From a virus (lineage: Duplodnaviria; Heunggongvirae; Uroviricota; Caudoviricetes), in the IMG/VR virus record IMGVR_UViG_2547132280_000007: a stretch of DNA of 31,479 nucleotides. One strand, 5' to 3'. The notes under the pieces are model-generated. The model was not told the DNA's origin. It saw only the letters and a program-made list of their open reading frames with translations, and ran no database searches. This document shows positions 2,246 through 28,246 of this stretch, in pieces. The position numbers were made by a program, and so were the translations under genes. Numbering within the stretch: position 1 is the first letter of the stretch; every line of letters starts with the position of its first letter.

Positions 2246-2724
2246 TATCCCGCCCCCGTCATACCCGTGAATCTGGTCGCCATACTGCCAGCCTTACCGA
2301 TGAGCGATTCCGCCTGTTTACCGATATCGCCATAAAGCGCGGCCAGTGATTCGTCAACGCGGGTGAGCGACAGCGTAAAATCAATTTTTCGGGGTGTGCC
2401 GTCTGCAAAGAAAATACTCCCTGTTTCACTCACCTTGCTGATGACATACATGCCGTAAATCATGCCAGTGCCATCCAGCAACGGCCACGCCCGGCCTTCA
2501 TCTGCCATCAGCCTGAGCGTGGTCATCGTCAGCTTTCCGCCGGTCAGTTCGGGATAAAGCACACCGGCAAGCGTCATGTTTTCCTCACCCACACCGAGAA
2601 ACTGGTAGGCCTCCCGTTTACCGATACGGGAATTTGACGGCCAGCGATAATCTGATTCACGCTGCATGGTCTGGTGTGGCAGCGTCTGGCGCATAAAAAC
2701 AAACATACCTAACGCGAGCATCAT
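2245..2724 (-). CDS. U: tail protein gpU, 159 aa
   Basis: Synteny (between T and D) and size match P2 gpU. Confidence 0.85.
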   Translation of the reverse strand: MMLALGMFVFMRQTLPHQTMQRESDYRWPSNSRIGKREAYQFLGVGEENMTLAGVLYPELTGGKLTMTTLRLMADEGRAWPLLDGTGMIYGMYVISKVSETGSIFFADGTPRKIDFTLSLTRVDESLAALYGDIGKQAESLIGKAGSMATRFTGMTGAG

Positions 2725-2738
2725 TTTTCGTCACCTCC

Positions 2739-5186
2739 TTAACCGTCATGCATCATGCTGGCACGGGCGCGCGCACGTTTATCCCGCTCGTATTTTTCGA
2801 GCGCATCCTGTAACTGGCGGTCAAGCTGTGTCCCCGGCGCAGTACCACCCGTCAGGCTGATGTGATATTCGTTTTTACTCTGGTCCACATAAGAGCGGCC
2901 AGCCGGTGCCGTGACCGGCTGATAAGCCTGATAGCCTGCATAAGAGCTGGTCGCCGGAATATAACCACCGGTGCCATACGTGGCGGCATGAGTTCTGGCG
3001 GCGGTCTGGTCAAGTGTGTCTGACTCTTTGTTGATAACACCGAGTTTTTCCAGTACCCAGTCAATACCGCTGCGCAGTTTGTTGAACGCATTAAGCGGCA
3101 GCATCAGCGCGTCAGCCAGTGCCTGCCCGAACATGACGCCCGTGTCACGGCAACGGTTCAGGGTGTCCTGTGTGGCTTTAACCGGAGCAATCAGGTTTGT
3201 AAACCACTGCCACGCGGCCTGTAACTTTTCGCCCAGCCAGTCAAACACCGGCTTAAGTGGCGTGAACAGCTCCCCCACCGGCGCAAATGCCGCTTTCAGC
3301 CCTTCAACCACACCGCCAAAGAATGCGCTGACAGGCTCCCAGTATTTACGGATAAGCAACGCCCCGGCGACAATGGCAGCCACCACGGCCACAACCGGCC
3401 AGCTAATCGCACCGATGGCCGTCATAACGGCACTACCAACCGTCGTGAAGATTGCCCCCATTGCGCCTGCTGCCGCGATAATGGCATTGATGCCGGTGAT
3501 AACCGGCCAGGCTACAAGGCCAATGGCACCGATGATGCCAGTCAGCGCCAGTGCACCGCCGGCAATGAGGCCGATGGTTGACGCCAGTGATTTGTTTTTC
3601 TGTATCCAGCCGTCGAGTTTTAACACATACTTTGTGGCCGTCTGCGTGAGCTTACGCAGCGCGCCTTCCTGCTGGTCAAACAGGTCAGTCCCCACAGCCT
3701 CATAAGCGGACTGAAACTCCTTAAAGTCACCGCCGAGGTTATCCTGCATGATTTTAACCAGCTCTTCCGTTTTACTGTCCGAGGCTTTCAGCGTGGCGGT
3801 CAGCGTATCCAGTTTTCCGCTTGCTGCCGCTGCCAGTAAAACGTTCGCTGATTTCAGGGCTTCCTCACCAAAAATGGTTTTAAGGTATTCCCCCTTCTGA
3901 GACGTTCCCAGCTTGTGTTTATCAAAGCTGGCCTGAATCTCTTTCAGAATGGTGAACAACGGACGCATATTTCCCTTTTTGTCCGAGGTTTTAACGCCAA
4001 GCTCTTTGAGTGCATCCCATGCTTTTCCAGTCGGAGCCTGTAATCGGGTGACAACGGCACTACTACCCGTACCCGCCATTGACCCCCTGATGTTATTGTC
4101 ATGCAGCACACCGGTCATGGCTGCTGCCTGCTCAAGACTTACACCTGCCGTTCTTGCGACCGGACCGAGGTAAGTCAGTGCATCACTGAGTCCCTGAAAA
4201 TCAGCCGCCGACTTATTCATCGTTGCCGACAACACGTCGCCCACATGGCTGACATCATCATTTGACAGTTGAAAGGATGCCTTAGTCCCCAGCAACAGTT
4301 GCGCGTTTTCTTCCATCGACCGCTGATTCGCCAGCGCCATATTCAGCGTGACCGGCGTTGCCGCCTGAATGGCATCAACATCCCCACCCGCTTTCGCGAT
4401 GATTATCTGTGCACCGACCGCATCATCCGCCGAGGCGGCGGTATTGTCGCCGAGCTGGCGCGCCTGTTTGCGTAGTGCGGTCATTTCGGCGGAGTCTTTT
4501 GCCACTCCGAGCACGGCCTGCAATTCTGAGTTTTTCTGCGCAAACTCATAACCGGGCATCAGCAACTTAACTCCGGCCATCGTTCCCGCCGCCGCAATCC
4601 CCACACCGGCAGCGCCCACTGAGGCCATATTTCCGGCCAGTTCCTTTCCGGCCTGATAACGCTGTTTGACTGCGTTAAGTTTGGCCTGTTGCGCACTGAC
4701 ACGCGCCAGCGCGTCACGCTGACGGTTAAGTTGTGCGATGGTTTCACTGATACGGTTTTTCAGTCCCTGCTCATCATGTGCAAGATTGCGGGTATTAATT
4801 CCCACAGCGGCCAGTTCCCGCTGCTGGCGTTTAACGGAATCCGTCAGGCGGTTATATTTCGCCTGTAAGTCCTCCGCCGCACGCTTTGCGGATTCCAGCA
4901 CTTTCGCCTGAGCACGGGTCGGTCGTTCGGTGTTTTTAAACTGTGTGGCAAGGGCTTCGGCCTCCTGCCGTGCCTTTTCAAGTGCATGACCAGTTACGGC
5001 AAGCTGTGCGCTGGTCTTACGGAATCCCTCAATACGGGATACCTGACCGTTCAGCTCGCGCAGTGATTTTTGTGTTTCCCGGATATCCCCCGACAGCGAC
5101 TTGCTCGCTGTACGGATGGATTTAAACGGGCGGGATGCCTGGTCAACAGCCCTGAGCAATACCTGTAATTTTACATTGTTACTCAT
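2739..5186 (-). CDS. T: tail tape measure protein gpT, 815 aa
   Basis: 815 aa; coiled-coil N-terminal region, central hydrophobic Gly/Ala-rich segments; located directly downstream of E/E'. Confidence 0.9.
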   Translation of the reverse strand: MSNNVKLQVLLRAVDQASRPFKSIRTASKSLSGDIRETQKSLRELNGQVSRIEGFRKTSAQLAVTGHALEKARQEAEALATQFKNTERPTRAQAKVLESAKRAAEDLQAKYNRLTDSVKRQQRELAAVGINTRNLAHDEQGLKNRISETIAQLNRQRDALARVSAQQAKLNAVKQRYQAGKELAGNMASVGAAGVGIAAAGTMAGVKLLMPGYEFAQKNSELQAVLGVAKDSAEMTALRKQARQLGDNTAASADDAVGAQIIIAKAGGDVDAIQAATPVTLNMALANQRSMEENAQLLLGTKASFQLSNDDVSHVGDVLSATMNKSAADFQGLSDALTYLGPVARTAGVSLEQAAAMTGVLHDNNIRGSMAGTGSSAVVTRLQAPTGKAWDALKELGVKTSDKKGNMRPLFTILKEIQASFDKHKLGTSQKGEYLKTIFGEEALKSANVLLAAAASGKLDTLTATLKASDSKTEELVKIMQDNLGGDFKEFQSAYEAVGTDLFDQQEGALRKLTQTATKYVLKLDGWIQKNKSLASTIGLIAGGALALTGIIGAIGLVAWPVITGINAIIAAAGAMGAIFTTVGSAVMTAIGAISWPVVAVVAAIVAGALLIRKYWEPVSAFFGGVVEGLKAAFAPVGELFTPLKPVFDWLGEKLQAAWQWFTNLIAPVKATQDTLNRCRDTGVMFGQALADALMLPLNAFNKLRSGIDWVLEKLGVINKESDTLDQTAARTHAATYGTGGYIPATSSYAGYQAYQPVTAPAGRSYVDQSKNEYHISLTGGTAPGTQLDRQLQDALEKYERDKRARARASMMHDG

Positions 5187-5606
5187 TCGTGTTTCCGCTT
5201 CGCCGGAGCGCCTTTTCGCGCCATGTGATGAGTTCGGTCAGGCTCATGGGATACAGTTCTGATGGCGGCCAGTGAAATATCACTGCCACATCCGCCATCA
5301 GGTCATCGACCGAGAGATTTTTCGGAAACGTTACTGCACCGAGTTCGGCGACAAAAAACCGACCACCTTACCGGCCAGTGCCACAAGGTCAGGCAGTTCC
5401 AGCGCGGCGACCTCCTGCTCGGTCAGCATCGGTGCCGTCATGCGCGGCAGCACTTTAATCAGTGCATCGACTTCGGAGTTTGCGACCGCAGCCAGACTGA
5501 CACCGCGCAGCGTCCCGGCATTGGGTTTCATCAGCGTGACCTGTTCGATAACCTGCTCACCACGCTTGACCGGATTGTCCAGGGTAATGACATTTTCTTT
5601 GTTCAT
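5179..5606 (-). CDS. E+E': gpE+E' tail assembly chaperone extension made by -1 programmed frameshift
   Basis: Hand translation: after the heptamer T_TTT_TTG (5358..5352, minus strand) the -1 frame reads VAELGAVTFPKNLSVDDLMADVAVIFHWPPSELYPMSLTELITWREKALRRSGNTNE and stops at TAA 5181-5179, overlapping the T start (ATG at 5186). Confidence 0.75.
5331..5606 (-). CDS. E: tail assembly chaperone gpE, 91 aa
   Basis: 91-aa ORF between FII and T, ending ...GFLSPNSVQ; contains the slippery site near its 3' end. Confidence 0.85.
   Translation of the reverse strand: MNKENVITLDNPVKRGEQVIEQVTLMKPNAGTLRGVSLAAVANSEVDALIKVLPRMTAPMLTEQEVAALELPDLVALAGKVVGFLSPNSVQ
5352..5358 (-). other. -1 programmed ribosomal frameshift slippery heptamer T_TTT_TTG
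   Basis: Minus-strand sequence GGTTTTTTGTCG located 7 codons before the gpE stop; the -1 frame downstream is open for 57 codons. Confidence 0.75.
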
Positions 5607-6193: not shown

Positions 6194-7384
6194 TTAATTG
6201 CTGTTAACCGAGGTGACCAGATTTGCCAGGTATTTATCGGTAATACGCTGGCGCAGGGTCAGGTTTTCAAGAGGAGGCACCGGGGTATAGTCGTAGTCGA
6301 TATACAGTTTTCCGGCCTTGAGGGTTTCCGCATCGTTGGATTCTTCGCTGAACCAGCAGGTCGCATCCACGATATAGCCGTTTGTTTTCAGCTCACGGAA
6401 TTTGGCATTGATGCCGTCAACGATGTCGCGAATCAGCGTTGCGGTGATGGGCTTATCCACAGCCCACATGTGCGCCTCAGCCATCGTGTCGGCCAGCACC
6501 TGCGCAGTGCGGGTGTAGTTTTCAAAGAGGAACAGCGGGTCATCAGAGCAGGTACGGTTACCCCAGAAGCGGAAACCGTCGCGGCGAATCAGCGTAGTGA
6601 CACCTGACTCGTTAAGAAGGTCAGCATCGGTGCCGGACTCCTGCAAATCCCAGAATACAGATGCGCTGATGCCGGTAACACCGTTTACCCCGACGTTGGA
6701 CAGCGTTTTATGCCAGCCCTGCTCCTGGTCGATTTTAGCGCGCAGCCCCAGTGCACGGGCGGTGGCATACGCGGTGGCGGTGGTACTGGTGACCGTATCC
6801 CATGCGAGGAAATCCGGCCAGATGACCATCAGCTCACGCTGGCTGAAATTCTGACGGTAGGCTTTCACCTCGGAAATGGTTTTACAGCCCCATGCGCTGA
6901 TATACCCGAAAGCGCGCAGCTTCTGACAGACTGATGCCAGTGCAACAGCCACCTCTTTGGTATCCAGTCCCGGCACGCCGAGAATACGCGGTTTTACACC
7001 GGTTACCGACTCCGCCGCCAGCAGGGCTTTCAGTCCGGTGTACTGACCGTTTTCGTCGGTGGTGCCGATGATATTGGAAACGGTCTGCGCGAGTTTCGTT
7101 TCTTCGTCTTCGCCGGTGCCGTCTTCCACACGCACGACAACGGTGACCGGTTTTGACTGGTCGGCGATGGCCTGTAACGATGCCGCCAGCGTGCCTTTTT
7201 TACCGGCCTTCGCAATTGCGCTCTGCACATTGGTAATCAGCACCGGTTTATTGAGGGGGAAGGTTTCCGCATCTGCATCGCTGGCCGTGCAGACCATGCC
7301 GACAATGGCCGTGGATACGGTGGAAATGACGCGGGTGCCGTCGTTAATCTCCAGCACCTGCACGCCGTGATGATAGTCACTCAT
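6194..7384 (-). CDS. FI: contractile tail sheath protein gpFI, 396 aa
   Basis: 396 aa, first gene of the FI-FII-E-T-U-D operon. Confidence 0.9.
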   Translation of the reverse strand: MSDYHHGVQVLEINDGTRVISTVSTAIVGMVCTASDADAETFPLNKPVLITNVQSAIAKAGKKGTLAASLQAIADQSKPVTVVVRVEDGTGEDEETKLAQTVSNIIGTTDENGQYTGLKALLAAESVTGVKPRILGVPGLDTKEVAVALASVCQKLRAFGYISAWGCKTISEVKAYRQNFSQRELMVIWPDFLAWDTVTSTTATAYATARALGLRAKIDQEQGWHKTLSNVGVNGVTGISASVFWDLQESGTDADLLNESGVTTLIRRDGFRFWGNRTCSDDPLFLFENYTRTAQVLADTMAEAHMWAVDKPITATLIRDIVDGINAKFRELKTNGYIVDATCWFSEESNDAETLKAGKLYIDYDYTPVPPLENLTLRQRITDKYLANLVTSVNSN

Positions 7385-7480
7385 CCGTTTAACTCCGTGG
7401 TTAATGGGTGAGTGGTATTTTCAGTTGTGCAGGGCATGAGATGCTATTTGACCTGGCTGGTCAGGGGATGAAACAACAGA
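7385..7480 (-). promoter_or_regulatory. candidate Ogr-dependent late promoter region upstream of FI
   Basis: Non-coding spacer between the terminator at 7481-7506 and the FI start. No consensus element was identified with confidence. Confidence 0.3.
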
Positions 7481-7506
7481 TAAAAAAGGCGGGCAATCAG
7501 CCCGCC
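7481..7506 (-). terminator. intrinsic terminator ending the V-W-J-I-H-G operon
   Basis: Stem ggcgggc (7488-7494) / gcccgcc (7500-7506) with loop aatca; on the minus strand followed by TTTTTT (7482-7487). Confidence 0.65.
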
Positions 7507-7714
7507 TGTATTTATTGCGGTATTTCCGACCATTCAGGATTTGCAGGATCCACACGACCAGAAAGACAGCTACTGATTAATCAGGCCAATAAATACATGA
7601 ACAGTAAGCAATAGCCCGGCAGGTCTGAGGTACTGGCGCAATATAATTTGTGGCTGGATTACCTGTACGCACCGGAGCGGTCCGATACTTCCGGTACGTC
7701 AGATATTGAATGGC

Positions 7715-8125
7715 CTACGCCTCCTGCAGTTCAGGCCAGATGACATCCGGTGCGGTGCTGGTATCTGTTGCCGTCACAGCGTCGATATAATCCAGCACAA
7801 CGTTAAGTCGGGTAGTTTCTTCTTGCGTCAGTTTGCGCCCGGCCTGCAGCTTTAACTGAATCACGCTGATATTGGCCATTGCTGCGTCTATCAGCGACTG
7901 TTTTTTCTGTTCAGCGTCAGCTACCAGTTCATCATGAGAACGTTCCGGAGGGAGCGGCGCAGTAAATACCCCGTCTGAATACCCCCAGCCGATTCCGGGA
8001 TGCTCACTGATATCAGAAATATCAATGAGCTGCTGATTATCCGGCACTGTGAATTCAGCCTCGCCATCCCAGACAATGACATTCACAACCATCCCATTTT
8101 CAATAACTGCATATGACGCATTCAT
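7715..8125 (-). CDS. G: tail fibre assembly chaperone (gpG-position), 136 aa
   Basis: Start ATG overlaps the H stop (TAATG) with GAGGAG 9 nt upstream. Shorter than P2 gpG (about 175 aa), consistent with an exchanged host-range cassette. Confidence 0.75.
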   Translation of the reverse strand: MNASYAVIENGMVVNVIVWDGEAEFTVPDNQQLIDISDISEHPGIGWGYSDGVFTAPLPPERSHDELVADAEQKKQSLIDAAMANISVIQLKLQAGRKLTQEETTRLNVVLDYIDAVTATDTSTAPDVIWPELQEA

Positions 8126-10290
8126 TATGCAAACTCCTCGATAATACAAATCCCAGCGGCACCTTTCCCGCCTGTCATACTGGTTCCGCTATAACCGGCA
8201 TCGTATGCACCACCTCCGCCTGAACCATATGCCTTACCGCTAACGCCACCGCCAGCGCCTGCGCGTCCACCGCCACCCCAGTACGATGTTCCGCCTTCAC
8301 CACTGACGCTGATATTTCCGGACTGACCGTCGCCTCCATTTCCACCAGTGATGCGGATATCGCCAGTACTCGGCACACCTCCGTTACCGCCGTTTGTGTT
8401 TGTAATTCCCACTTTCCCGCCACCTGCGCCACCAGGAGCAATTAACGATGCGAATACGCTATTCCCGCCACTGGTGCCGTTCGTCGCACTAACACCACCG
8501 GCCCCACCTGCGCCGATAGTGACTGGATAACTATTCTGTATCGGGGTCATTATTGAAATTATTGTTCCACCGGCCCCACCGCCAGCACCGAAAAACGTTT
8601 CATTATTGGATATAGCCTTGCAGCCGCCCCCTCCGCCACCGCCGCCCGTTATTGTGACCCTAATCCGTTTTGTTCCTGGCGTCGGGGTGTACGTACCTGA
8701 TGACGTGAAAACCCGGGTATTCACCAAGCGTCCCACGTATCCACTTGCATCGCTCAAGCCAAGGTCAGCAGCAGTAGGTTTAATATGTGAACTGTAAATT
8801 ACATATACAGTTCCATCTGTCAGGCCTGTTGGTTTATTCGCTGTATAAGATGGTGATGTATGAATCGTTACGCTGGCGTTACTGGTATAATCCCACTGAA
8901 TATTAACACGTGTGGTGTAATTACCTATTTCAACATAAACATCATAGGTATCACCGGATGTATTCACCCATGCAAAATTAGTAAATCCAACCGATGTCCG
9001 TCGCCATAACGCACCAGTAAGACCTTTTGGATTCCCATTTCCCGCACGAAGAACAAGTTCAGATATACCAGCCTGCATAGGGGAGTTAACATTATATCCA
9101 GAACCACCAATCAGACTTATGTAAACCACGGAACTGGCCTGTGGCATGGTTACAGTTGCCAGCCTGAACCATCCTGTACCACCACTAAAAGACATGGTTG
9201 TTGAATTTGTTGCTCCAATATTGCGCAGGAATAATCTTTTATCAGGAATATCCGCGCCGTTCTGATCTTTCTGAAGACGTTTTTCAGCATTGTCATAGGC
9301 AGACTTCACCGCTTTCGGTGTTGCGGCCAGCGTTTCAGAAGTGCTATTGGTGGCGCTGCTGAGCTGGACAAGGCCTTTTCGCGCTGTGGTCGCGTCCTGT
9401 GCGGTATATTTCCCGTTAGCAAGGTCATATGCTGTCTTAACCGCCTTTGGCGTTGCCGCAAGCGTTTCAGAATCGCTGTTGGTGGCGCTACTGAGCTGGA
9501 CAAGACCTTTTCGCGCTGTGGTCGCGTCCTGTGCGGTATATTTCCCGTTAGCAAGGTCATATGCTGTCTTTACCGCCTTTGGCGTTGCCGCAAGCGTTTC
9601 AGAATCGCTGTTGGTGGCGCTACTGAGCTGGACAAGACCTTTTCGCGCTGTGGTCGCGTCCTGTGCAGTATATTTCCCGTTAGCAAGATCATACGCGACC
9701 TTTACCGCTCTCGGCGTTGCGGCCAGTGTTTCAGACGTGCTGTTGGTTGCGCTGCTTAACTGAGTAAAACCTTTTGCGGTCAGCGATGCATCCGGGTGTC
9801 GTCGTGAATGTTCGTGTTCTGAGATTTTGTCATCCACATATTTACGGGTCGCCAGTACTACCGACGGGTCGATTTTCAGCGTGATGGCTTCGGTATTCGA
9901 GACAACCAGAATCATGCGGATAGTCTGGGTACGACCACTGCCTTCCTGCAACTGCGGTTTGTACGTTTCCGGGCAGTTCGCCACCGCAATGAGTACGCCT
10001 TCATCATCATAAAGCCCAATCTCACGGATCCAGAATCCTCCCTCGTTTTCAGGGATAATTTGCTCCGCAATAATCTGGCTCTGATTGTTAGGGTCAACAC
10101 TCAGAAGATTCAGCGGTGCAATGCGTTTCTGGTTAATCAGTTTTGTCTGTGCCGGGTCTGGTGTCGGTAATACACCATTCGCATCACCAACGGCCATTTG
10201 CGTCAGATTCAGCTTACTGCCGAGCATCGTCGCGTTAGCCAGTCGTGCTGCGCCCTGATTAGTCAGAATGGCGTAGTATTTCACTGTCAT
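8125..10290 (-). CDS. H: tail fibre protein gpH, 721 aa, mosaic: P2-like N-terminus, four ~40-aa repeats, glycine-rich C-terminal domain
   Basis: The N-terminus MTVKYYAILTNQGAARLANATMLG... is the conserved P2 H baseplate-attachment region. The middle has four copies of GLVQLSSATNSxSETLAATPKAVKxAYDLANGKYTAQDATTARK. The C-terminus is Gly-rich (GGGGGGGCK..., GAGGGAGG, GGNGGDGQSG). Confidence 0.85.
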   Translation of the reverse strand: MTVKYYAILTNQGAARLANATMLGSKLNLTQMAVGDANGVLPTPDPAQTKLINQKRIAPLNLLSVDPNNQSQIIAEQIIPENEGGFWIREIGLYDDEGVLIAVANCPETYKPQLQEGSGRTQTIRMILVVSNTEAITLKIDPSVVLATRKYVDDKISEHEHSRRHPDASLTAKGFTQLSSATNSTSETLAATPRAVKVAYDLANGKYTAQDATTARKGLVQLSSATNSDSETLAATPKAVKTAYDLANGKYTAQDATTARKGLVQLSSATNSDSETLAATPKAVKTAYDLANGKYTAQDATTARKGLVQLSSATNSTSETLAATPKAVKSAYDNAEKRLQKDQNGADIPDKRLFLRNIGATNSTTMSFSGGTGWFRLATVTMPQASSVVYISLIGGSGYNVNSPMQAGISELVLRAGNGNPKGLTGALWRRTSVGFTNFAWVNTSGDTYDVYVEIGNYTTRVNIQWDYTSNASVTIHTSPSYTANKPTGLTDGTVYVIYSSHIKPTAADLGLSDASGYVGRLVNTRVFTSSGTYTPTPGTKRIRVTITGGGGGGGGCKAISNNETFFGAGGGAGGTIISIMTPIQNSYPVTIGAGGAGGVSATNGTSGGNSVFASLIAPGGAGGGKVGITNTNGGNGGVPSTGDIRITGGNGGDGQSGNISVSGEGGTSYWGGGGRAGAGGGVSGKAYGSGGGGAYDAGYSGTSMTGGKGAAGICIIEEFA
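9300..9790 (-). repeat. four tandem direct repeats, 120-bp period, inside H
   Basis: Units starting near 9311, 9441, 9561 and 9681 are near-identical; copies 2 and 3 differ by only a few bases. They encode the 40-aa tail-fibre repeat. Confidence 0.85.
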
Positions 10291-19229: not shown

Positions 19230-21002
19230 ATGACCATCACCACAGACACCACTCTTTTACACGACCCGCGTCGTCAGGCGGCGCTGCTGTACTGGCAGGG
19301 ATTTTCCGTGCCGCAGATTGCCGCCATGTTGCAGATGAAACGCCCGACGGTGCAGAGCTGGAAACAGCGCGACGGCTGGGACAGCGTTGCCCCCATCAGC
19401 CGTGTCGAAATGAGTCTGGAAGCGCGGCTGACCCAGCTCATCATCAAACCGCAGAAAACCGGCGGTGACTTCAAGGAAATTGACCTGCTCGGACGCCAGA
19501 TTGAACGACTGGCACGGATAAACCGCTACAGTCAGACCGGCAACGAGGCAGACCTTAATCCGAACGTCGCTAACCGCAACAAAGGCGGGCGTCGCAAACC
19601 GAAAAAGAATTTTTTCAGTGACGAGGCCATCGAAAAGCTGGAGCAGATTTTCTTTGAGCAGTCTTTCGACTATCAGTTGCACTGGTATCGCGCCGGGCTT
19701 GAGCACCGCATCCGCGATATCCTGAAATCCCGCCAGATTGGCGCAACGTTTTATTTTTCCCGCGAGGCGCTGCTGCGTGCCCTGAAAACCGGTCATAACC
19801 AGATTTTTCTGTCGGCCAGTAAAACGCAGGCGTATGTGTTCCGCGAATACATCATCGCCTTTGCCCGTCTGGTTGACGTTGACCTGACCGGTGACCCGAT
19901 TGTCCTGGGCAATAACGGCGCAAAACTGATTTTTCTCGGCACCAACTCCAACACCGCACAGAGCCATAACGGTGACCTGTACGTCGACGAGATTTTCTGG
20001 ATCCCGAATTTTCAGGTACTGCGTAAGGTGGCATCAGGTATGGCCTCACAGAGTCACCTGCGCTCGACCTATTTCTCCACCCCGTCCACGCTGGCGCACG
20101 ACGCCTACCCGTTCTGGTCGGGTGAACTGTTTAACCGGGGACGCGCCAGCGCCGCTGAACGCGTGGAAATCGACGTCAGTCATAACGCCCTTGCCGGTGG
20201 GCTTCTCTGTGCGGACGGCCAGTGGCGGCAGATTGTCACCATTGAGGACGCCCTGAAAGGCGGCTGCACATTGTTCGACATTGAGCAGCTTAAACGCGAA
20301 AACAGCGCCGACGATTTTAAAAACCTGTTCATGTGTGAATTTGTTGACGACAAGGCATCGGTGTTCCCGTTCGAGGAGCTGCAACGCTGCATGGTCGACA
20401 CGCTGGAAGAATGGGAAGACTATGCGCCGTTTGCCGCAAATCCGTTCGGCTCACGTCCGGTATGGATTGGTTACGACCCGTCACACCGTGGCGACAGCGC
20501 CGGATGCGTGGTACTGGCACCGCCGGTGGTGGCCGGTGGCAAATTCAGAATACTTGAGCGTCACCAGTGGAAAGGCATGGACTTTGCCACCCAGGCGGAA
20601 TCCATCCGCAAACTCACCGAAAAATACAACGTCGAATACATCGGAATTGATGCCACCGGCCTCGGTGTCGGCGTGTTCCAGCTCGTGCGCTCGTTCTATC
20701 CCGCCGCGCGCGATATCCGCTACACGCCGGAAATGAAAACCGCAATGGTGCTCAAGGCAAAAGACGTTATCCGCCGTGGCTGTCTGGAATATGACGTCAG
20801 CGCCACCGACATCACCAGCTCGTTTATGGCTATCCGCAAGACCATGACCAGCAGCGGACGCAGTGCCACCTATGAGGCCAGCCGCAGCGAGGAAGCCAGC
20901 CACGCCGACCTCGCCTGGGCGACCATGCACGCCCTGTTAAATGAGCCACTCACCGCCGGTATCAGCACCCCGCTGACATCCACCATTCTGGAGTTTTACT
21001 GA
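19230..21002 (+). CDS. P: terminase large (ATPase) subunit gpP, 590 aa
   Basis: Start at MTITTDTTLL... (ATG 19230, GAGGT 4 nt upstream) gives 590 aa, the P2 gpP length. Confidence 0.9.
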   Translation: MTITTDTTLLHDPRRQAALLYWQGFSVPQIAAMLQMKRPTVQSWKQRDGWDSVAPISRVEMSLEARLTQLIIKPQKTGGDFKEIDLLGRQIERLARINRYSQTGNEADLNPNVANRNKGGRRKPKKNFFSDEAIEKLEQIFFEQSFDYQLHWYRAGLEHRIRDILKSRQIGATFYFSREALLRALKTGHNQIFLSASKTQAYVFREYIIAFARLVDVDLTGDPIVLGNNGAKLIFLGTNSNTAQSHNGDLYVDEIFWIPNFQVLRKVASGMASQSHLRSTYFSTPSTLAHDAYPFWSGELFNRGRASAAERVEIDVSHNALAGGLLCADGQWRQIVTIEDALKGGCTLFDIEQLKRENSADDFKNLFMCEFVDDKASVFPFEELQRCMVDTLEEWEDYAPFAANPFGSRPVWIGYDPSHRGDSAGCVVLAPPVVAGGKFRILERHQWKGMDFATQAESIRKLTEKYNVEYIGIDATGLGVGVFQLVRSFYPAARDIRYTPEMKTAMVLKAKDVIRRGCLEYDVSATDITSSFMAIRKTMTSSGRSATYEASRSEEASHADLAWATMHALLNEPLTAGISTPLTSTILEFY

Positions 21003-22036
21003 TGAGCAAGAAAAAAGGGAAAACACCGCAACCTGCGGCAAAAAAAATGACCGCCAGCGCCCCGAAAATGGAGGCATTCACCTTTGGTGAGCCGGTGCCG
21101 GTACTCGACCGGCGTGACATTCTGGATTACGTCGAGTGCATCAGTAACGGCAGATGGTATGAGCCACCGGTCAGCTTTACCGGTCTGGCGAAAAGCCTGC
21201 GTGCTGCCGTGCATCACAGCTCACCGATTTACGTCAAACGTAATATTCTGGCCTCGACATTTATCCCGCATCCATGGCTTTCCCAGCAGGATTTCAGCCG
21301 CTTTGTGCTGGATTTTCTGGTATTTGGTAATGCATTTCTGGAAAAGCGTTACAGCACCACCGGTAAAGTTATCAGGCTGGAAACCTCACCGGCAAAATAT
21401 ACCCGCCGTGGTGTGGAAGAGGATGTTTACTGGTGGGTGCCGTCCTTCAACGAGCCGACAGCCTTCGCGCCCGGCTCCGTGTTTCACCTGCTGGAGCCGG
21501 ATATTAATCAGGAGCTGTACGGCCTGCCGGAATATCTCAGCGCCCTTAACTCTGCCTGGCTGAATGAGTCGGCCACGCTGTTCCGCCGCAAGTATTACGA
21601 AAATGGCGCACATGCCGGATACATCATGTACGTCACTGATGCCGTGCAGGATCGCAACGATATCGAAATGCTTCGCGAAAACATGGTCAAGTCGAAAGGC
21701 CGCAACAACTTTAAAAATCTGTTTCTCTATGCCCCGCAGGGGAAAGCCGACGGCATTAAAATTATCCCGCTCAGTGAAGTGGCAACGAAGGACGATTTTT
21801 TTAATATCAAAAAAGCCAGCGCCGCTGACCTGCTGGACGCGCACCGCATCCCCTTTCAGTTGATGGGCGGCAAGCCGGAGAACGTCGGGTCGCTGGGTGA
21901 TATTGAGAAAGTGGCAAAGGTCTTTGTCCGCAATGAACTTATCCCGTTACAGGACAGGATTCGGGAAATAAACGGCTGGCTCGGCCAGGAGGTCATCCGC
22001 TTTAAAAACTACTCACTGGACACTGACAACGGCTGA
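21002..22036 (+). CDS. Q: portal protein gpQ, 344 aa
   Basis: 344 aa; start overlaps the P stop (TGATG). Confidence 0.9.
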   Translation: MSKKKGKTPQPAAKKMTASAPKMEAFTFGEPVPVLDRRDILDYVECISNGRWYEPPVSFTGLAKSLRAAVHHSSPIYVKRNILASTFIPHPWLSQQDFSRFVLDFLVFGNAFLEKRYSTTGKVIRLETSPAKYTRRGVEEDVYWWVPSFNEPTAFAPGSVFHLLEPDINQELYGLPEYLSALNSAWLNESATLFRRKYYENGAHAGYIMYVTDAVQDRNDIEMLRENMVKSKGRNNFKNLFLYAPQGKADGIKIIPLSEVATKDDFFNIKKASAADLLDAHRIPFQLMGGKPENVGSLGDIEKVAKVFVRNELIPLQDRIREINGWLGQEVIRFKNYSLDTDNG

Positions 22037-22041
22037 ACATC

Positions 22042-22063
22042 GCCGCCTGCGGGCGGCTTTTTT
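22042..22063 (+). terminator. intrinsic terminator after Q
   Basis: gccgcc-tgcg-ggcggc stem-loop (22042-22057) followed by TTTTTT (22058-22063). Confidence 0.7.
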
Positions 22064-22205
22064 ACACCCCGTCATCACGCCCTCACACGCTCACCACCGC
22101 ACAAAACACCCCGTAGACACACCAACGCCCCGGCGCACAATCTAAACGCCATCAAGACGCGCTCAGACGCTGAAAAAATAAAATCAGCACCACCGCCAGC
22201 GCGCA

Positions 22206-22224
22206 GTGCTTTCCCCGCCTCGCC
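22206..22224. other. cos: cos cohesive-end site (19 nt)
   Basis: gtgctttccccgcctcgcc is the reverse complement of GGCGAGGCGGGGAAAGCAC, which I recall as the P2 19-nt cohesive end. It lies about 170 bp past the Q stop, the expected position. Confidence 0.6.
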
Positions 22225-22299
22225 CGCCCGCTTCATGGGGCGGTTTTAATGCAGTTGCATGAGTACGTTGGAACCGCACTGGTGCTGACGATACCCAAT

Positions 22300-22320
22300 C
22301 AAACCTTGCTGTATAATTAC
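22300..22320 (+). promoter_or_regulatory. candidate sigma70 promoter for the cargo operon
   Basis: TG immediately followed by a perfect TATAAT (22310-22317), about 130 nt upstream of the cargo gene start; the -35 element is weak. Confidence 0.3.
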
Positions 22321-22450
22321 TTGCGAATTCACGCACATCAACGCGAATCTTACATCATGAATAATTCATTTATGGCTACAGAATGAGTATATTGCATGTT
22401 ATGAAATAACTTTGTGCTCCTTCTCGTGGACATGTTCAACGGAGATCCAG

Positions 22451-23572
22451 ATGATTGCTGATTCAGAAATACTTTATGTTCCGCTAGATGATTTGGAACT
22501 TGACACAGAAAACCCAAGACTTCCTGAAGGCGTGTCTCGTGACCAATTGGGAATGATTAACTACATAGCAACCTCAACATCTATCGAAGACTTAATGAGT
22601 GCTATTGCGGAAAATGGTTTTTTCCCTGGAGAACCATTGATTGTCATTCCTGATAGTGGAGCGCCGGGGAAGTACATTGTAGTTGAAGGAAACCGTCGCC
22701 TATCCGCGGTCAAATTATTACGCGATCCGACACTATGTGAAAATCCAAGTGCTCGACTACGAGAAATTGCATCAAATGCAAAACATACGGTCGATCGTGT
22801 TCCTGTCATTGAGCGCCAAACAAGAGAAGAGATTCTTCCGTACCTTGGTTTCAGACATATTACTGGTGTCAAACAATGGGAACCCTTATCAAAAGCTCGA
22901 TATATTAAACAGCTTTTTGATTATACCAATGCAAATCTGGATCCAATGCTACGCTACTATGAGGTTGCCAGAGCTATTGGCAGTCGTAGGGATCATATCA
23001 AGCGTAACCTAGACGCTTTAGCGGTGTATGAAATCATTAAAAAAAATGATTTTTATGGTATTGAAAAGCTAGATGAAGAAACGATTAAATTTTCAGTATT
23101 ATCAACAGCACTTGCTGATGAGCGGTTAGGCCAGTTTGTCGGAGTTTCAATCGAAGACGATGGAGACACAATACCAAGTCATCCTATCATCAATTCTAAG
23201 AGTTTAAAGAACAAAGAAATAAAAGAACTAACTGAATGGTTATATAAAAAAGGCGAGGATAAAAAAACTCGTGTAGGAGAATCACGTAATTTAAGAGAAC
23301 TAGCTGCTGTTGTAAGTAGCCCTAAGGCATTGGAGCAATTCCGAATGGGGGCTCCACTCGCAGTTGCCTATCAATTGACATCTGATATTACTAAGGACTT
23401 TCTCCAGTTACTTTATCAAGTTGAAGCAGCTTTGATAGATGCAGCAGGCATGGTTGCCACGGTAGAGTATGATAGACAGGCCCATGAAGTAGCACGAAGA
23501 ATCAATAAACATATTAAGCTTATAGGTTCTGAAATAGCAGAGAAAAATAGCAGAGGTGATGATGACTTTTGA
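22451..23572 (+). CDS. ParB/Srx-like N-terminal domain protein, 373 aa (cargo gene 1)
   Basis: Start at ATG 22451 with GGAG 6-7 nt upstream. The N-terminal 150 aa follow the ParB N-domain pattern: LDDLELDTENPR, IVVEGNRRLSAVKLL (GxRR box), VPVIER. AT-rich. Confidence 0.7.
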   Translation: MIADSEILYVPLDDLELDTENPRLPEGVSRDQLGMINYIATSTSIEDLMSAIAENGFFPGEPLIVIPDSGAPGKYIVVEGNRRLSAVKLLRDPTLCENPSARLREIASNAKHTVDRVPVIERQTREEILPYLGFRHITGVKQWEPLSKARYIKQLFDYTNANLDPMLRYYEVARAIGSRRDHIKRNLDALAVYEIIKKNDFYGIEKLDEETIKFSVLSTALADERLGQFVGVSIEDDGDTIPSHPIINSKSLKNKEIKELTEWLYKKGEDKKTRVGESRNLRELAAVVSSPKALEQFRMGAPLAVAYQLTSDITKDFLQLLYQVEAALIDAAGMVATVEYDRQAHEVARRINKHIKLIGSEIAEKNSRGDDDF

Positions 23573-24551
23573 AGTAGGAGTTATGCATCCCAACTCTCCT
23601 CATTTGTTTGCAGATTTAGCCGAGTTACTCACGGTAATTAATTATACCGGACGTAACTCACTACATAAAAATGATTTAGATTCAGTAAGAAAATTCGGCA
23701 TAACAAGCGTTGAAGAAATTGATGAAGAATGTAATTCTGAAGAAGAAATTAATGGAGACGCTGAGAGAAATGATCGTTTTGAAGAGCAACTCGAAGATGT
23801 TTGGACACAACTCGAATATAGAGAAAGTGCTCTTGGAAAAATATATCCATTTATAATTTCAGGTGATGAGATAATTATTAAAGAAAATCTAAACCAACAA
23901 CAACGAATATATGTTTTTCTTCTTTGCTGCTCTAGACTTAGATCCTTTAAGTCGATTAAAGGAGCAGCACAACGTTGGGCAAAGAGCTTTGCCAGAGTAT
24001 GTAAAGTAGCAATGATTTCTCTCTTACCTGCACATGGCACCGTAAGAATTTTTGATGCTAACTCCGATGATAGGCAAAATTATTATGGAACAAATCTTCG
24101 GACAGCTCTACAAACTTTAGGAAAAGATCTTGGAGTTTGTAGTTTAAACACAAGGGAAATAAATAGAGCTCCCACATCTGGTGATGCCGGGTTTGACCTA
24201 ATTGCTACAGTGGAATTTCCTGATGGTCAAACTAGCAACTATGGAATTCTTGGTCAATGTGGTGCACAAGAAACAGGGTGGCCAAGCAAAACATTAGAGG
24301 CTAACGTGTTAAAACTGACCACCTATTTCCAAATTGCGTTCCAGCATCCATCAACAATGTTCACGCCTGTTTTCTATCGGGAAGCAAATGGCGAATGGGT
24401 AAGCACACACGCAACCGCTGGGGTATTATTATTAGATAGGTTGAGAATCATATATCTACTTGATAAGGCAAACCAATGGGAAGCGATAACTACCTCTGAT
24501 TGGTTTCGCGAATTTGAGGAAGAGCTTTATACATTAAATCCAGAGCCTTAA
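23562..24551 (+). CDS. hypothetical protein, about 329 aa, translationally coupled to gene 1 (cargo gene 2); possible nuclease or effector
   Basis: Overlaps the gene 1 stop by 11 nt. Start is uncertain (GTG 23556, ATG 23559/23562 or ATG 23583); AGAGG lies 5 nt before ATG 23562. No confident motif seen. Confidence 0.6.
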   Translation: MTFEVGVMHPNSPHLFADLAELLTVINYTGRNSLHKNDLDSVRKFGITSVEEIDEECNSEEEINGDAERNDRFEEQLEDVWTQLEYRESALGKIYPFIISGDEIIIKENLNQQQRIYVFLLCCSRLRSFKSIKGAAQRWAKSFARVCKVAMISLLPAHGTVRIFDANSDDRQNYYGTNLRTALQTLGKDLGVCSLNTREINRAPTSGDAGFDLIATVEFPDGQTSNYGILGQCGAQETGWPSKTLEANVLKLTTYFQIAFQHPSTMFTPVFYREANGEWVSTHATAGVLLLDRLRIIYLLDKANQWEAITTSDWFREFEEELYTLNPEP

Positions 24552-24558
24552 TAGCTTA

Positions 24559-25503
24559 TCAATCCCATAATTCTATTGGCAATGCCTTCGTTACAGCTTC
24601 AAAAAGCGGCGGAGGCACTGCATTACCAACCACCGTGTATTTCATGCCAAGACTTGCAGCATTTGTTTCTGGAAACACTAGATCCTCAAACCCTTGTAAT
24701 AGTGCTGCCTCTCGAAAACTGAATCTGCGAGCTCTCCGATCCTCAACAAATCTCCATTCATCAGTTCTTACTTTCTCCATCGGAGGACTGACAGGATGCA
24801 ACGGCATATGCCTTGCATTAGCAACTATTGTCTTTGAAATTTGATCCCAATCCTGGCGACGATTGCGAGACATATAATACCAATGGAATCCCATATCATA
24901 AAATTCACCTTCTGGCCATTCAGGTAAATGCCCTATAGCATCTTTAATAGTAACATAGTTGACGCCAGTTGCTGGCCCATGAGTTGGCTGAGGGAACTCG
25001 TACTTAACTTTGAAATCATTACGGATTCCTACGATAAATATTCTTTTTCTTTCCTGCGCTACTCCATATTCAGCCGCATTTAAAACTTTTGCGGAAACAG
25101 TATAACCTGCTTCAGTAAAAACCCTGATCTGGTCAGATAACAAATGCTCAAAATTTTTTCTAACCATACCAGACACGTTTTCTACTATAAAAGCTTTAGG
25201 CTTTATATTGTTTAAAGCTCTAGCAAACTCTAAATAAAGAGTATTAATTTTTCGATCGGCTTTACGCGCACCACCCTGGCTGAATCCCTGACATGGATAA
25301 CAACCTACCAGCAAATCAGATTTAGGAAAAGTAGTTACATCAGCAATATTGCCTAATATGTAATCAGTTTCTGGATGATTGGCAATATAAACATCGCGCG
25401 CATACGGCAAGATATCGTTGGCCATAAGCACATCAAAGCCGGCTCTCAAAACCCCCGCATCGGAACCACCGCATCCAGAAAAAAGTGAAACTACTGTTGG
25501 CAT
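24559..25503 (-). CDS. DNA (cytosine-5)-methyltransferase, 314 aa
   Basis: C5-MTase motifs in canonical order: I SLFSGCGG, IV GCYPCQGFS (catalytic Pro-Cys), VI FIVENV, VIII QERKRIFIVG, X VVGNAVPP. Strong SD (GGAGGGGATA) before the ATG. Confidence 0.85.
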   Translation of the reverse strand: MPTVVSLFSGCGGSDAGVLRAGFDVLMANDILPYARDVYIANHPETDYILGNIADVTTFPKSDLLVGCYPCQGFSQGGARKADRKINTLYLEFARALNNIKPKAFIVENVSGMVRKNFEHLLSDQIRVFTEAGYTVSAKVLNAAEYGVAQERKRIFIVGIRNDFKVKYEFPQPTHGPATGVNYVTIKDAIGHLPEWPEGEFYDMGFHWYYMSRNRRQDWDQISKTIVANARHMPLHPVSPPMEKVRTDEWRFVEDRRARRFSFREAALLQGFEDLVFPETNAASLGMKYTVVGNAVPPPLFEAVTKALPIELWD

Positions 25504-25704
25504 TATCCCCTCCTAAAACCGACCGCGTATTATAGCGAAAGCCTCCGTATATAGAAGCAGGTTTTGAACAAGATTATGTTCTCACTTTTTAACAACTGTG
25601 GCCATAAAAAATTAGCTCAATATGAAAAACAGATTAATTCATTGTTTTTCATAGAAAAATTCCACAAACACTATAACATTCCCACAACACTGCAGTAGTA
25701 GTCA

Positions 25705-27981
25705 TTATTGTTTAATTGAAAAAACCGACCACTCATTAGCGACCGGATACGTGAATTTTTTCCCGTCATAATTTACGGTTGCCCCACGCGCCAGCGCCTC
25801 AAGCTCCCATCGCTGCGGCCTGATACCGTTCTGAGCAAGGTCAACGCGGATACGGGTAATTTGCATTCGTTCCGACCGGGTCAGTCTGGCCGATGGTGCC
25901 ATTTCATGCGGTTTTAACGGGCTTCCGTTTCTTTGCTGGCGATTTGGTGTTCTCAGGCCATGTTTTAATGCACCTCTGAGCGCCCTCACGACCTCCGGGT
26001 CATTCCATTCGATGACACCGTCATCAACCAGATTAAGCACTGCTGCGGCGTGCTCAGAAGGTGTGGGGGCTGGTAACGAAGTATCACCACCGGTGAGCTT
26101 TCCACAGTTATTGACAGGACTCCGAGGCGCGGCGATGCCGCTTTTTAAAGTCAAAGGCTCAACGACCGGAACTTTCGGCACAATGCGCCAGTCCGTCGTT
26201 CTGGTGATATGAATATGACGCGCGCCGAGATGCGGCGCGTAAATGCCGACCACTCTCTCGACTTCTTCCTCGTACTCGTTAACGTCATCCGACGGGCTAC
26301 GGGCAACCCTGACAGTCTGACAATCGCGCGGGACATTTGCCCCACCCTGCGCGCTGATATACAACGCAAAATCACCACTGTCTGCGGCAGCGCGAGCAGC
26401 CTCGACGCGTTCGTCAAACTCATCAGCAATACTGACGCCGCGAGGCAATTTGCGTAGTTCACGGTAAGCCCCCATTGTCGGCAGTCCAACCGTTTTAAAT
26501 TGCGGGATGCGCCACGTTGACGCCCATGCGGTAACAGCCGCGGCAGTATCTTTAAGCGGCTTACCGGTATCGTTATCGAGCTGACCATCCAGTGCATAGC
26601 CGTCGATATTTTTTGAAATGTATTTCGCGATATATCCCGCAGCACCGCCCCGGTTAAGGTGCTTTGCCTGAAAACGGTTTCGCGCGGCTCCTCTTTCGTC
26701 ACCATCCTCTTTGAGCGCATAGCGACGCATGATTTCGATAATCTGGTTACGCTGGCGTGGATTACAAAAAAGCATCATATGCCAGTGCGGCGTTCCGTCG
26801 TGGTGTGGCTCGACGACACGCAAACCGTAGACCTGTAAATCATTATCCTTAAATGCCGTGCGCATCAGGCTCCAGATGCGGCAGAGATAACGCTGCGCAT
26901 CCTTTGGATTAAATGCCTCATCGTTCCAGCCGTGATTAAGCTGAACGGTTTTACTTTCGCCTTTTCTGACCTGACGAGTCGGGTGATACTTTGACGGCGC
27001 GGTCAGCGTGATAAACATCCCCACATCACCCTCTGCGGCGGCGTAACGCTCAATACCGGCAATGGTGTTCATCAGCTCCATCCGGCGAATTTCAGGATTA
27101 GAAATACTGCCCATCACCTTACTGATAAGGTCGATGCGCTCGCCGGTTTCCCTGTTTTCAAGGTCACACGATTTAAGAAATTCCAGATTTGCCTGGCGGC
27201 GCGCACGCACATCACGAATGGCGTGTTTACTGGCATAAGGAGAACGGTCTTTATTGACCTCCCCGACAGCTATCAGTAACGCTTCATGCCAGCGCATACG
27301 CTGGCCTTTAAGCTGATGAGTCCACCACTCATCGTTAAACAGACGGGCAATGGCAGAATATGCCTGCCTCGTGGTCATCTGCCCTTTACGGTATTTTTTC
27401 CAGTAGAGCGGGGATATATTGAAAGCACGTGCAGCGCCAGCAACATGACCATAGAGGTGAGCCTGCGCCTCATCCGTAAACAGCGATTCTTTTTCGCCAT
27501 GCGCATCCACCCAGGCATCGCTGAGTTCCTCATACATCATGAAAAGCTGCGATGAGATACGGGCAACAAACTTTTTCAGCTCCTTGTCATTCATTCCCGG
27601 CAGGCGCGCATAGTGGTCACGCTCTGCCAGAAACAGTAACGACGCGTCGGTGTTCATTTCATGGCGCTGATTCACACGCTCAATGCGCGGCCATAAACGA
27701 CGCTGAAAAGTGGATGTGAGGAAATAAAACCCGTGCACCGGGCTTTTATTGCGCCGGATGTAGTCATAGCGTGAAGTAAACAGCGAGCGCAAAAAGTAAG
27801 GCAGGCGGTTAATCGTGGATAAAACACCCTGCACCTGACGCATCTCGTCACGTGTAAGGGGTCTTTCGCGCCCGACAGCCTCGCGTGGCGCGTTCCATGC
27901 ATAAGCACCGGTAAACGCCTTACCGGTGCCTGCGGCAAATACTGACGGAGGGACAAAACGCCCGGAGGCTTTAACGGCCAT
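25705..27981 (-). CDS. A: replication initiation protein gpA (rolling-circle nickase)
   Basis: Large protein directly after B and the small ORFs. Start chosen at MAVKASGRFVPP... (ATG 27981, coupled to the upstream ORF stop); the track ORF extends to 28023. Confidence 0.85.
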   Translation of the reverse strand: MAVKASGRFVPPSVFAAGTGKAFTGAYAWNAPREAVGRERPLTRDEMRQVQGVLSTINRLPYFLRSLFTSRYDYIRRNKSPVHGFYFLTSTFQRRLWPRIERVNQRHEMNTDASLLFLAERDHYARLPGMNDKELKKFVARISSQLFMMYEELSDAWVDAHGEKESLFTDEAQAHLYGHVAGAARAFNISPLYWKKYRKGQMTTRQAYSAIARLFNDEWWTHQLKGQRMRWHEALLIAVGEVNKDRSPYASKHAIRDVRARRQANLEFLKSCDLENRETGERIDLISKVMGSISNPEIRRMELMNTIAGIERYAAAEGDVGMFITLTAPSKYHPTRQVRKGESKTVQLNHGWNDEAFNPKDAQRYLCRIWSLMRTAFKDNDLQVYGLRVVEPHHDGTPHWHMMLFCNPRQRNQIIEIMRRYALKEDGDERGAARNRFQAKHLNRGGAAGYIAKYISKNIDGYALDGQLDNDTGKPLKDTAAAVTAWASTWRIPQFKTVGLPTMGAYRELRKLPRGVSIADEFDERVEAARAAADSGDFALYISAQGGANVPRDCQTVRVARSPSDDVNEYEEEVERVVGIYAPHLGARHIHITRTTDWRIVPKVPVVEPLTLKSGIAAPRSPVNNCGKLTGGDTSLPAPTPSEHAAAVLNLVDDGVIEWNDPEVVRALRGALKHGLRTPNRQQRNGSPLKPHEMAPSARLTRSERMQITRIRVDLAQNGIRPQRWELEALARGATVNYDGKKFTYPVANEWSVFSIKQ

Positions 27982-28246
27982 ATGAGCCAAAAGCCTCTGA
28001 ACAACGCTTGCTGAGTTGCTCAACCTGCGCGTTTAAATCAGCAAAAGATTTTGCGCTTCCGGTCAGAATATCGTGATGCATCAGGCCGGAAACGAGCTGG
28101 CTTAATTTCGGGTAATAACCAACCACTGCCAGCCATTCCTGACCGGCGTTTTTACCGCTTTCCGCTCTCTTTCTCTCGTGGAGAATAAACTGAAAGCTGT
28201 CACTGGTAACGACATAACGTTCGCCAATTTCAATACGAATACTCAT
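27971..28246 (-). CDS. small early protein, 91 aa (P2 orf83-position)
   Basis: Synteny between B and A; overlapping stop/start with neighbours. Confidence 0.6.
   Translation of the reverse strand: MSIRIEIGERYVVTSDSFQFILHERKRAESGKNAGQEWLAVVGYYPKLSQLVSGLMHHDILTGSAKSFADLNAQVEQLSKRCSEAFGSYGR

Follow-up and report, generated by a model that had tools for sequence, protein, structure and literature searches.

We have delineated a cassette of three genes, encoding a ParB-like protein, a nuclease-like protein termed C2 and a 5-methylcytosine (m5C) DNA methylase, in the cargo region of a P2-like (Peduovirus) prophage. The prophage is IMG/VR record IMGVR_UViG_2547132280_000007, and the whole stretch of 31,479 nucleotides that was analyzed is referred to here as the window. 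Our finding concerns the joint at which the C2 and methylase genes meet tail to tail, TAATAGCTTATCA at window positions 24549-24561 as read directly from the sequence. In our judgement it is likely that the two units of a compact, restriction-modification (R-M)-like cassette meet at this joint across a minimal spacer, and that transcript overlap and interference at the joint are consequences of that layout. A convergent gap of 7 bp would be unremarkable in isolation; comparison with relatives shows tightness at the joint to be a conserved hallmark of the cassette.

A sequence-only reading of the window had described C2 (its cargo gene 2) and the methylase as two convergent cargo genes. It placed their stops 7 bp apart with no hairpin between them, and concluded that the two transcripts must overlap in a way that allows antisense cross-regulation of the kind seen in some R-M systems. 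The placement of the stops is borne out by the sequence, by the open reading frames (ORFs) and by the RefSeq/PGAP annotation, and the description of the genes as convergent cargo agrees with their orientation and with their position in the P2 cargo hotspot, which extends from the portal gene/cos to replication gene A. Their treatment as two separate pieces of cargo did not hold, as the census of related loci described below makes them parts of one conserved cassette.

Cassette genes and their linkage

Coordinates of the three genes and of the features around the joint are collected in Table 1. The bounds of both convergent genes agree between the ORF list and the RefSeq/PGAP annotation of E. 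coli chromosomes that match at 100% identity, where C2 is labeled a hypothetical protein and the third gene a DNA cytosine methyltransferase. The ParB-like protein consists of an N-terminal ParB/Srx fold that binds nucleoside triphosphates (NTPs), a ParB-type helix-turn-helix (HTH) and a helical C-terminal part. It was matched by NCBIfam parB_part (5.4e-8) and by the PADLOC PD-Lambda-5_A models (best E = 6.6e-29), PF02195 is on record for many of its orthologues, and an invariant GNRR motif is the counterpart of the ParB GxxR nucleotide-binding box. A second homologue search started from this protein returned close orthologues only and stopped short of PD-lambda-5_A. The C2 start overlaps the ParB-like gene by 11 nucleotides (nt), and the two therefore look like one operon. 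No family in Pfam, NCBIfam or PADLOC matched C2, which carries a signature, SGDxGxD...GQCGAQE...K..E, that is invariant among its relatives; its putative nuclease activity is suggested by fold likeness. The methylase was matched over its full length by PF00145 (5.5e-65), and also by TIGR00675 dcm (1.4e-56) and by M.HaeIII (1.4e-48, residues 4-308). Its translation shows FSGCGG, PCQ, ENV and QERKR, a complete set of catalytic motifs, and its presumed role would be protective. No HTH gene was found in 22037-25704 by ORFs, Pfam or annotation, C-boxes not having been searched for.

Linkage was surveyed from both sides of the joint. The C2-based census covered 102 loci from genomes, metagenomes and viral contigs, which were clustered at 90% identity into 58 lineages, 54 of them informative. 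The methylase-based census covered 70 distinct orthologues (69-100% identity) on viral contigs, with 69 informative. Wherever the contig extends far enough upstream, C2 is immediately preceded by a ParB-like gene, and the two usually overlap. An orthologous methylase lies downstream and convergent in 45/54 informative C2 lineages and upstream and co-directional in 3/54; a different m5C methylase, downstream and co-directional, was found in one other lineage (L056), and some adjoining m5C methylase is present in 49/54. Viewed from the methylase side, all 69 informative orthologues adjoin a ParB-C2 pair, 68 of them convergently, and the nearest plasmid methylases are less than 40% identical. The methylase is therefore a dedicated component and not a passer-by, and its linkage to the pair is near-obligate. 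The layout is also found outside phages, in an integrase-flanked island in Pseudomonas.

The joint is conserved along with the gene content. Among the 45 convergent C2 lineages the stop-to-stop gap has a median of 3 bp, being 10 bp or less in 32 and 41 bp or less in 40, and the stops overlap by 4 nt (e.g. CTAG or TTAA) in eight. In the methylase-based census the gap is 9 bp or less in 64/68, with −4 as the most frequent value. The usual gap is −4 to +9 bp, and overlapping stop codons are the commonest case. Convergent ORF pairs taken from the flanks of related loci, a crude background of 39 ORF-based pairs and not an annotated genome-wide distribution, have a median gap of 55 bp with 9/39 (~23%) at 10 bp or less (family gaps versus this background, Fisher p = 1.2e-5). 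Five lineages have large gaps: three of these hold an HNH_2 gene, one holds a vsr gene, and the fifth (L055) has an insert of 997 bp.

These counts bear on whether the two units might be neighbors by coincidence, with an orphan methylase, serving anti-restriction or gene regulation, beside an unrelated two-gene cargo and the short gap a product of chance. Such a coincidence is hardly credible. Orphan methylases are common in phages, gaps this small occur in the quarter or so of unrelated convergent ORF pairs noted above, and ParB-C2 without a methylase was seen in five lineages; set against this, the unbroken adjacency of methylase orthologues to ParB and C2 spans two deeply diverged subfamilies and non-phage islands, and the closest methylases elsewhere, on plasmids, are far removed in sequence. 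In one variant, moreover, the methylase is joined by a vsr gene, as expected of an active m5C methylase kept as part of the module. The independent orphan methylase was rejected, the linkage census strongly disfavoring it.

The methylase is 69-100% identical across loci in which the ParB-like protein drops to ~38-45% and C2 to ~30-35%. Two deeply diverged ParB/C2 subfamilies, one of the window type and one of the type found in phage Wphi, share essentially the same methylase (window 24559-25503; L105, phage Wphi, 2328-3266; loci L106-L185). One explanation could be that the methylation target is fixed and the effectors diversify, another that modules are swapped at the tail-to-tail joint.

Transcription across the joint

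A consensus terminator scan found none at or near the joint, and a separate scan for hairpins followed by U-runs found no terminator within 300 nt beyond either stop on either strand. When the same hairpin and U-run scan was applied to the window and 10 diverse relatives, nothing terminator-like was found close to the joint; the two terminator-like matches in this set both lie more than 240 nt inside coding sequence. RNA structure was equally sparse. A 161-nt fold across the joint was not significantly better than its shuffles (z −1.8 and −0.5), RNAalifold returned 0 conserved pairs for 27 aligned joints, and an Rfam search of the joint at E ≤ 1 gave 0 matches. Both scans thus agree with the earlier statement that the gap holds no hairpin or terminator. 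Since the gap is 7 bp and lacks a terminator, each transcript should enter the opposing gene and the 3' ends should overlap; such overlap is very likely and follows from the geometry. The earlier conclusion that the convergent transcripts must overlap is well founded in this respect, as the gap is too short for a terminator and its surroundings have no predicted one.

The extent of the overlap is probably limited. The + read-through RNA, antisense to the methylase, has a C/G ratio of 1.2-2.0 over its first 360 nt, and the − read-through RNA, antisense to C2, has a ratio of 1.18 overall; both are untranslated and C-rich/G-poor. Untranslated RNA that is C-rich and G-poor is the kind ended by Rho in E. 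coli. A Rho limit is therefore expected, and the overlap may be short: we would predict tens to a few hundred nt, and not full-length antisense RNAs.

The overlap would be smaller still if a cryptic terminator were hidden inside the coding 3' ends, for example the hairpin at 24579-24621 acting in both directions, in which case the transcripts would barely overlap. This hairpin is stable in the minimum free energy (MFE) and centroid structures of the + strand, and its complement also folds on the − strand. No U-tract follows it on either strand, and on the − strand it precedes the methylase stop, so that termination there would truncate the mRNA. The z-scores given above are unremarkable, the hairpin coincides with the codons of GNAVPPP, and none of its pairs is conserved in the 27 relatives. 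We consider a cryptic terminator very improbable, and the hairpin itself was ruled out as a terminator, as it lacks a U-run on either strand, lies in coding sequence and has no conserved structure.

The joint is better understood, we believe, as the inner edge of the compact cassette. The + unit would supply a ParB-like, probably NTP-dependent DNA-binding protein together with a translationally coupled nuclease-like protein that combines a winged helix (wH) with a PD-(D/E)xK domain, and the − unit a dedicated HaeIII-like m5C methylase under its own promoter-like signals. The spacer would be minimal in that nothing functional is needed between the units, deletion bias and limited cargo space stripping spare DNA, and tight linkage would keep the methylase and its partners co-inherited. 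Rho and/or polymerase collision probably bring read-through to an end within the opposing gene, with some mutual dampening of expression as a likely by-product. We infer an R-M logic for the cassette from the obligate linkage seen from the methylase side, the restriction endonuclease (REase)-like fold, the vsr and HNH variants, the HsdS neighbor of one lineage (L009) and the precedent of PD-lambda-5. The function of the cassette is probably anti-phage.

Several points weigh against this interpretation. The catalytic motif of C2 is atypical, which weakens a strict R-M logic, and 5/54 C2 lineages lack a methylase within 1.1 kb or more; the ParB-C2 pair may not need a cognate methylase, which would weaken that logic further. 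The background used for gap sizes is crude, as stated above, and the promoters of both units are weak consensus guesses. Finally, tiny gaps conserved across 45-68 lineages are just as compatible with selection for convergent read-through, and sequence alone cannot separate compaction from function.

If read-through were selected, it would dampen the opposing unit by polymerase collision and/or a cleaved 3' RNA duplex, and would set the nuclease:methylase ratio or delay the nuclease in a newly entered cell, standing in for the missing C protein. We regard this as a tentative possibility. Convergence in 45/54 C2 lineages and 68/69 methylase orthologues, with gaps kept mostly between −4 and +9 bp despite deep protein divergence, argues for it, as does the lack of a predicted intrinsic terminator around the joint, both in the window and in 10 relatives. 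The window cassette also lacks an HTH controller gene, such as precedes the methylase in an HNH variant. For EcoRI and Eco29kI, regulation by antisense transcription and polymerase collision is on record (PMC12707154, PMC3141266). The layout is nonetheless not indispensable, given the co-directional methylase of three lineages (orthologous, upstream) and of one other (a different m5C methylase, downstream). One lineage carries a perfect terminator-like palindrome in a 41-bp gap, neither conserved RNA structure in 27 joints nor an Rfam match was found, and tiny convergent gaps are not rare among unrelated pairs. C-rich untranslated RNA should, in addition, be ended by Rho within a few hundred nt. 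A regulatory role for transcript overlap is accordingly best described as possible but unproven. A further-reaching version, in which convergent read-through replaces the C protein in a new R-M-like class (ParB NTP-dependent clamp, wH/PD-(D/E)xK nuclease and m5C methylase) and sets or times the nuclease:methylase balance, for instance with the methylase winning at establishment in a naive cell, seems to us distinctly unlikely.

The significance of the joint depends on which of these accounts is true. If read-through is a by-product, the result is largely one of housekeeping, in that an odd junction is explained and what had been called two cargo genes is shown to be one module. If read-through tunes the proportion of nuclease to methylase, it would be a simple way, without any protein, of managing establishment, a task that falls to C proteins in classical R-M systems. 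The useful result is that a module has now been defined, namely a ParB-like/nuclease-like/m5C-methylase cassette in the main P2-like defense hotspot and in islands of other Proteobacteria. PADLOC matched single proteins of the cassette (the ParB N-domain and the methylase), and neither C2 nor a complete known system. Specialists would hardly be surprised by the junction alone; the cassette, together with its consistently abutting or overlapping stops, is a reasonable lead, and is a candidate for defense work and for a ParB-type role in self/non-self discrimination.

Prophage setting and variant cassettes

The window was recognized as a P2-like prophage by its terminase, portal gene (21002-22036), gene A (25705-28023) and integrase at the end. 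A variable cargo hotspot at the old/tin locus of P2-like phages has been described by Vassallo 2022 (PMC9519451) and also by Rousset 2022. The 3.7 kb stretch from the portal gene to gene A was found in 48/5,426 complete E. coli genomes, with 99.6-100% identity in the best 25 of these 48, and is carried at 99.9% identity by Yersinia phage HQ103. Homology to other P2-like phages is confined to the ~220 bp that follow the portal gene, on the cos side, and stops near window position 22260. From there to gene A (22260-25704) the G+C content is 0.34-0.45, versus 0.51-0.58 in the phage backbone, which marks the region as acquired and is consistent with horizontal gain of the entire cassette in one piece. 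The old-tin operon of P2 begins beside cos and heads toward A-orf91, and the convergent ends of tin and orf91 are 38 bp apart; a convergent meeting point is therefore normal in this hotspot. The cos-proximal part shared with other P2-like phages (22037-22260) contains terminator-like hairpins at 22042-22057, after the portal gene, and at 22224-22243, and the linear genome end of phage HQ103 corresponds to about window position 22225.

Promoters were sought by consensus matching. The scan reported 9 promoter-like sites against 8.7 expected from shuffles, and its best site (10/12 matches, − strand, 22741-22714) lies inside the ParB-like gene; at a rate that shuffles also give, such sites are no evidence of a functional promoter. 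The putative methylase signals in Table 1 precede the ATG at 25503; the TATAAT at 25534-25529 was not reported by the scan because its −35 element is poor. The candidate −10 hexamer of the ParB-C2 operon matches the position of the mapped old-tin transcript starts in the P2 annotation. The terminator-like hairpin at 25725-25746 may shield the methylase gene from the early (A) operon.

Table 1. Positions in the window of the cassette genes, the tail-to-tail joint and nearby candidate signals
Feature	Coordinates	Strand	Basis
Gene 1, ParB-like protein, 373 aa	22451..23572	+	family/fold matches
Gene 2, C2 (cargo gene 2 of the sequence-only reading), 329 aa, putative winged-helix and PD-(D/E)xK restriction-endonuclease-like domain	23562..24551	+	fold likeness
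Gene 3, cytosine-5 DNA methyltransferase, 314 aa, M.HaeIII-related over full length	24559..25503	−	PF00145
C2 stop codon, TAA	24549..24551	+	sequence
Spacer TAGCTTA, 7 bp, between the convergent stops; no hairpin, no T-run	24552..24558	.	sequence, terminator scans
Methylase stop codon, TGA (+ strand reads TCA)	24559..24561	−	sequence
Local hairpin in the methylase 3' coding part (codons of the conserved GNAVPPP motif)	24579..24621	+	MFE fold and centroid of + strand RNA
Putative methylase promoter and ribosome-binding site: perfect −10 TATAAT (25534-25529), weak −35, Shine-Dalgarno AGGAGG (25514-25509)	25509..25534	−	consensus match only
Candidate −10 hexamer of the ParB-C2 operon, TGTATAAT at 22310-22317	22312..22317	+	consensus match; cassette-specific DNA, cos to ParB start
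Terminator-like hairpin and T-run within the final ~15 codons of gene A, immediately preceding the putative methylase promoter	25725..25746	−	scan

Several relatives depart from the plain three-gene form. In L006, L041 and L049 an HNH_2 endonuclease gene (310-320 aa) separates C2 from the methylase; it is itself close to the methylase, lying 5 bp away in L006 and 2 bp away in L041 and overlapping it by 21 nt in L049. The HNH variant of L006 has the coordinates 6997-7929 (+), 7935-8876 (−) and 9343-9663 (−). A small HTH gene (HTH_31/HTH_3, C-protein-like) is found upstream of the methylase only in the HNH-containing L006/L007. In L040, a vsr (very-short-patch repair) gene (4770-5189, −) lies directly downstream of the methylase and ends 11 bp from the C2 stop; its position would fit an active m5C methylase that creates a risk of T:G mismatches.

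Terminator-like structures were seen in two places. The 41-bp gap of L100/L174 holds a perfect palindrome, AAAGGCCACAT-AATAAA-ATGTGGCCTTT, between the stops with A/T runs on either side, and this is the only lineage seen with one. A bidirectional terminator is plausible here, and the family would then be able to accommodate one. In L025 (an Acidovorax metagenome-assembled genome) a strong hairpin, GGATGGCCCTCAAA...TTTGAGGGCCATTC, followed by a T-run lies on the − strand in the C2 coding region, ~240 nt before the C2 stop. The hairpin could genuinely terminate transcripts that run on from the methylase, or could indicate that the gene is disrupted.

Other loci retain part of the cassette. L009 (Methylococcaceae) has no m5C methylase, and its ParB-C2 pair (1584-3332, +) comes immediately after a Type I HsdS gene, a place typical of accessory defense genes. 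The related L043/L044 also lack a methylase by tblastn. Yersinia phage L-413C (L104; NC_004745; 207-1199, 1155-1607) carries a lone, apparently truncated ParB-like gene (330 aa) without C2 or methylase, the end of which overlaps the convergent orf91 by 45 nt. ParB-like genes ~67% identical over residues 9-233 are carried by L-413C and by the vB_EcoM-12474 phages, the latter known as search matches only. The L-413C gene looks like a remnant left after the joint loss of C2 and methylase.

Comparison with known systems

The closest named counterpart of the window cassette is gp98-gp96-mth of phage Wphi (NC_005056 / AY135739), which has the same place in the hotspot, the same gene order and the same orientation. 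Identity to the window proteins is 76% for mth, 34% for gp98 (ParB-like) and 25% for gp96 (C2), and gp96 and mth meet tail to tail with a 4-nt overlap; the Wphi ParB-like and C2 proteins form a sister subfamily. The versions in Wphi, in E. coli prophages and in HQ103 are annotated only as hypothetical or as 'DNA cytosine methylase', and we found no functional or transcriptional study of the cassette or of its Wphi version in the literature. Rousset et al. 2022 make no mention of ParB or methylase.

The nearest validated system is PD-lambda-5, a prophage defense system described as 'ParB/HEPN, methyltransferase' and labeled by its authors a compacted 'RM+Abi'; it needed a cloning host without the mrr region, implying an active methylase (PMC9519451). 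Its validation shows that modules of a ParB-like protein and a methylase defend against phages. The window cassette resembles it in being prophage-borne and in combining a ParB-N-domain protein with a DNA methyltransferase, and differs from it in several respects. PD-lambda-5 has two genes and the window cassette three, C2 being a separate protein without a PADLOC model. The likeness of the window protein to PD-Lambda-5_A is mostly in the ParB-N domain, over about the first 160 profile positions, and no HEPN domain was detected in the window ParB-like protein, in contrast to the ParB/HEPN fusion of PD-lambda-5. The methylase matched 63 PADLOC families, and the best 25 of these 63 include DruM2, MTase_II, DrmMII and oMTase and do not include PD-Lambda-5_B. 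The cassette is thus an uncharacterized relative or variant of PD-lambda-5, not a member. Druantia type II, to which the methylase match to the DruM2 model (1.1e-113) might point, was rejected: DruE, DruF and DruG are absent, there is no large helicase/DUF1998 gene, and the neighbors are the ParB-like gene, C2 and gene A.

A looser likeness is to systems that join a ParB-like nucleotide-binding module with a nuclease module. GmrSD, SspE and BrxU have a ParB/Srx-fold NTPase and a nuclease (DUF262 and DUF1524, the latter His-Me), usually in one polypeptide, and are modification-dependent without a cognate methylase. The general logic, in which the two modules would read DNA modification status, may be alike by analogy. 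Searches of Pfam and PADLOC gave no match of the window proteins to the GmrSD, SspE or BrxU domains.

In layout, the cassette resembles P2 old-tin/orf91, where a cargo operon of lysogenic-conversion or defense genes from the cos side also meets a gene co-directional with A tail to tail. The proteins are unrelated (Old nuclease, Tin) and the P2 gap, at 38 bp, is larger. Furthermore, orf91 is not a partner of old/tin, whereas the window methylase is an obligate partner of the pair that it faces.

Among R-M systems, Esp1396I and AhdI share with the cassette convergent methylase and nuclease units that have their own outer promoters (PMC2691842, PMC2275141). Both have C proteins. Esp1396I has a putative bidirectional terminator between its genes, and its C protein binds both promoters (PMC2691842); the window joint, in contrast, offers neither space nor a terminator, and the cassette has no gene for a C protein. 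The nuclease component differs as well, being a ParB-like and wH/PD-(D/E)xK pair in the window and a single classical REase in Esp1396I and AhdI.

EcoRI and Eco29kI, in which antisense transcription and polymerase collision modulate the restriction gene (PMC12707154, PMC3141266), would be the precedent for the antisense cross-regulation proposed in the sequence-only reading. Both are co-directional R-to-M operons with dedicated reverse promoters inside the R gene, which make short antisense RNAs over its 5' region (PMC12707154). Any antisense RNA in the window would, by contrast, be 3' read-through from a full convergent gene. This precedent is only a loose analogy, because it depends on internal reverse promoters in co-directional operons and not on convergent gene ends; the likeness to R-M systems does stand, in that a dedicated m5C methylase faces a putative nuclease operon across the joint.

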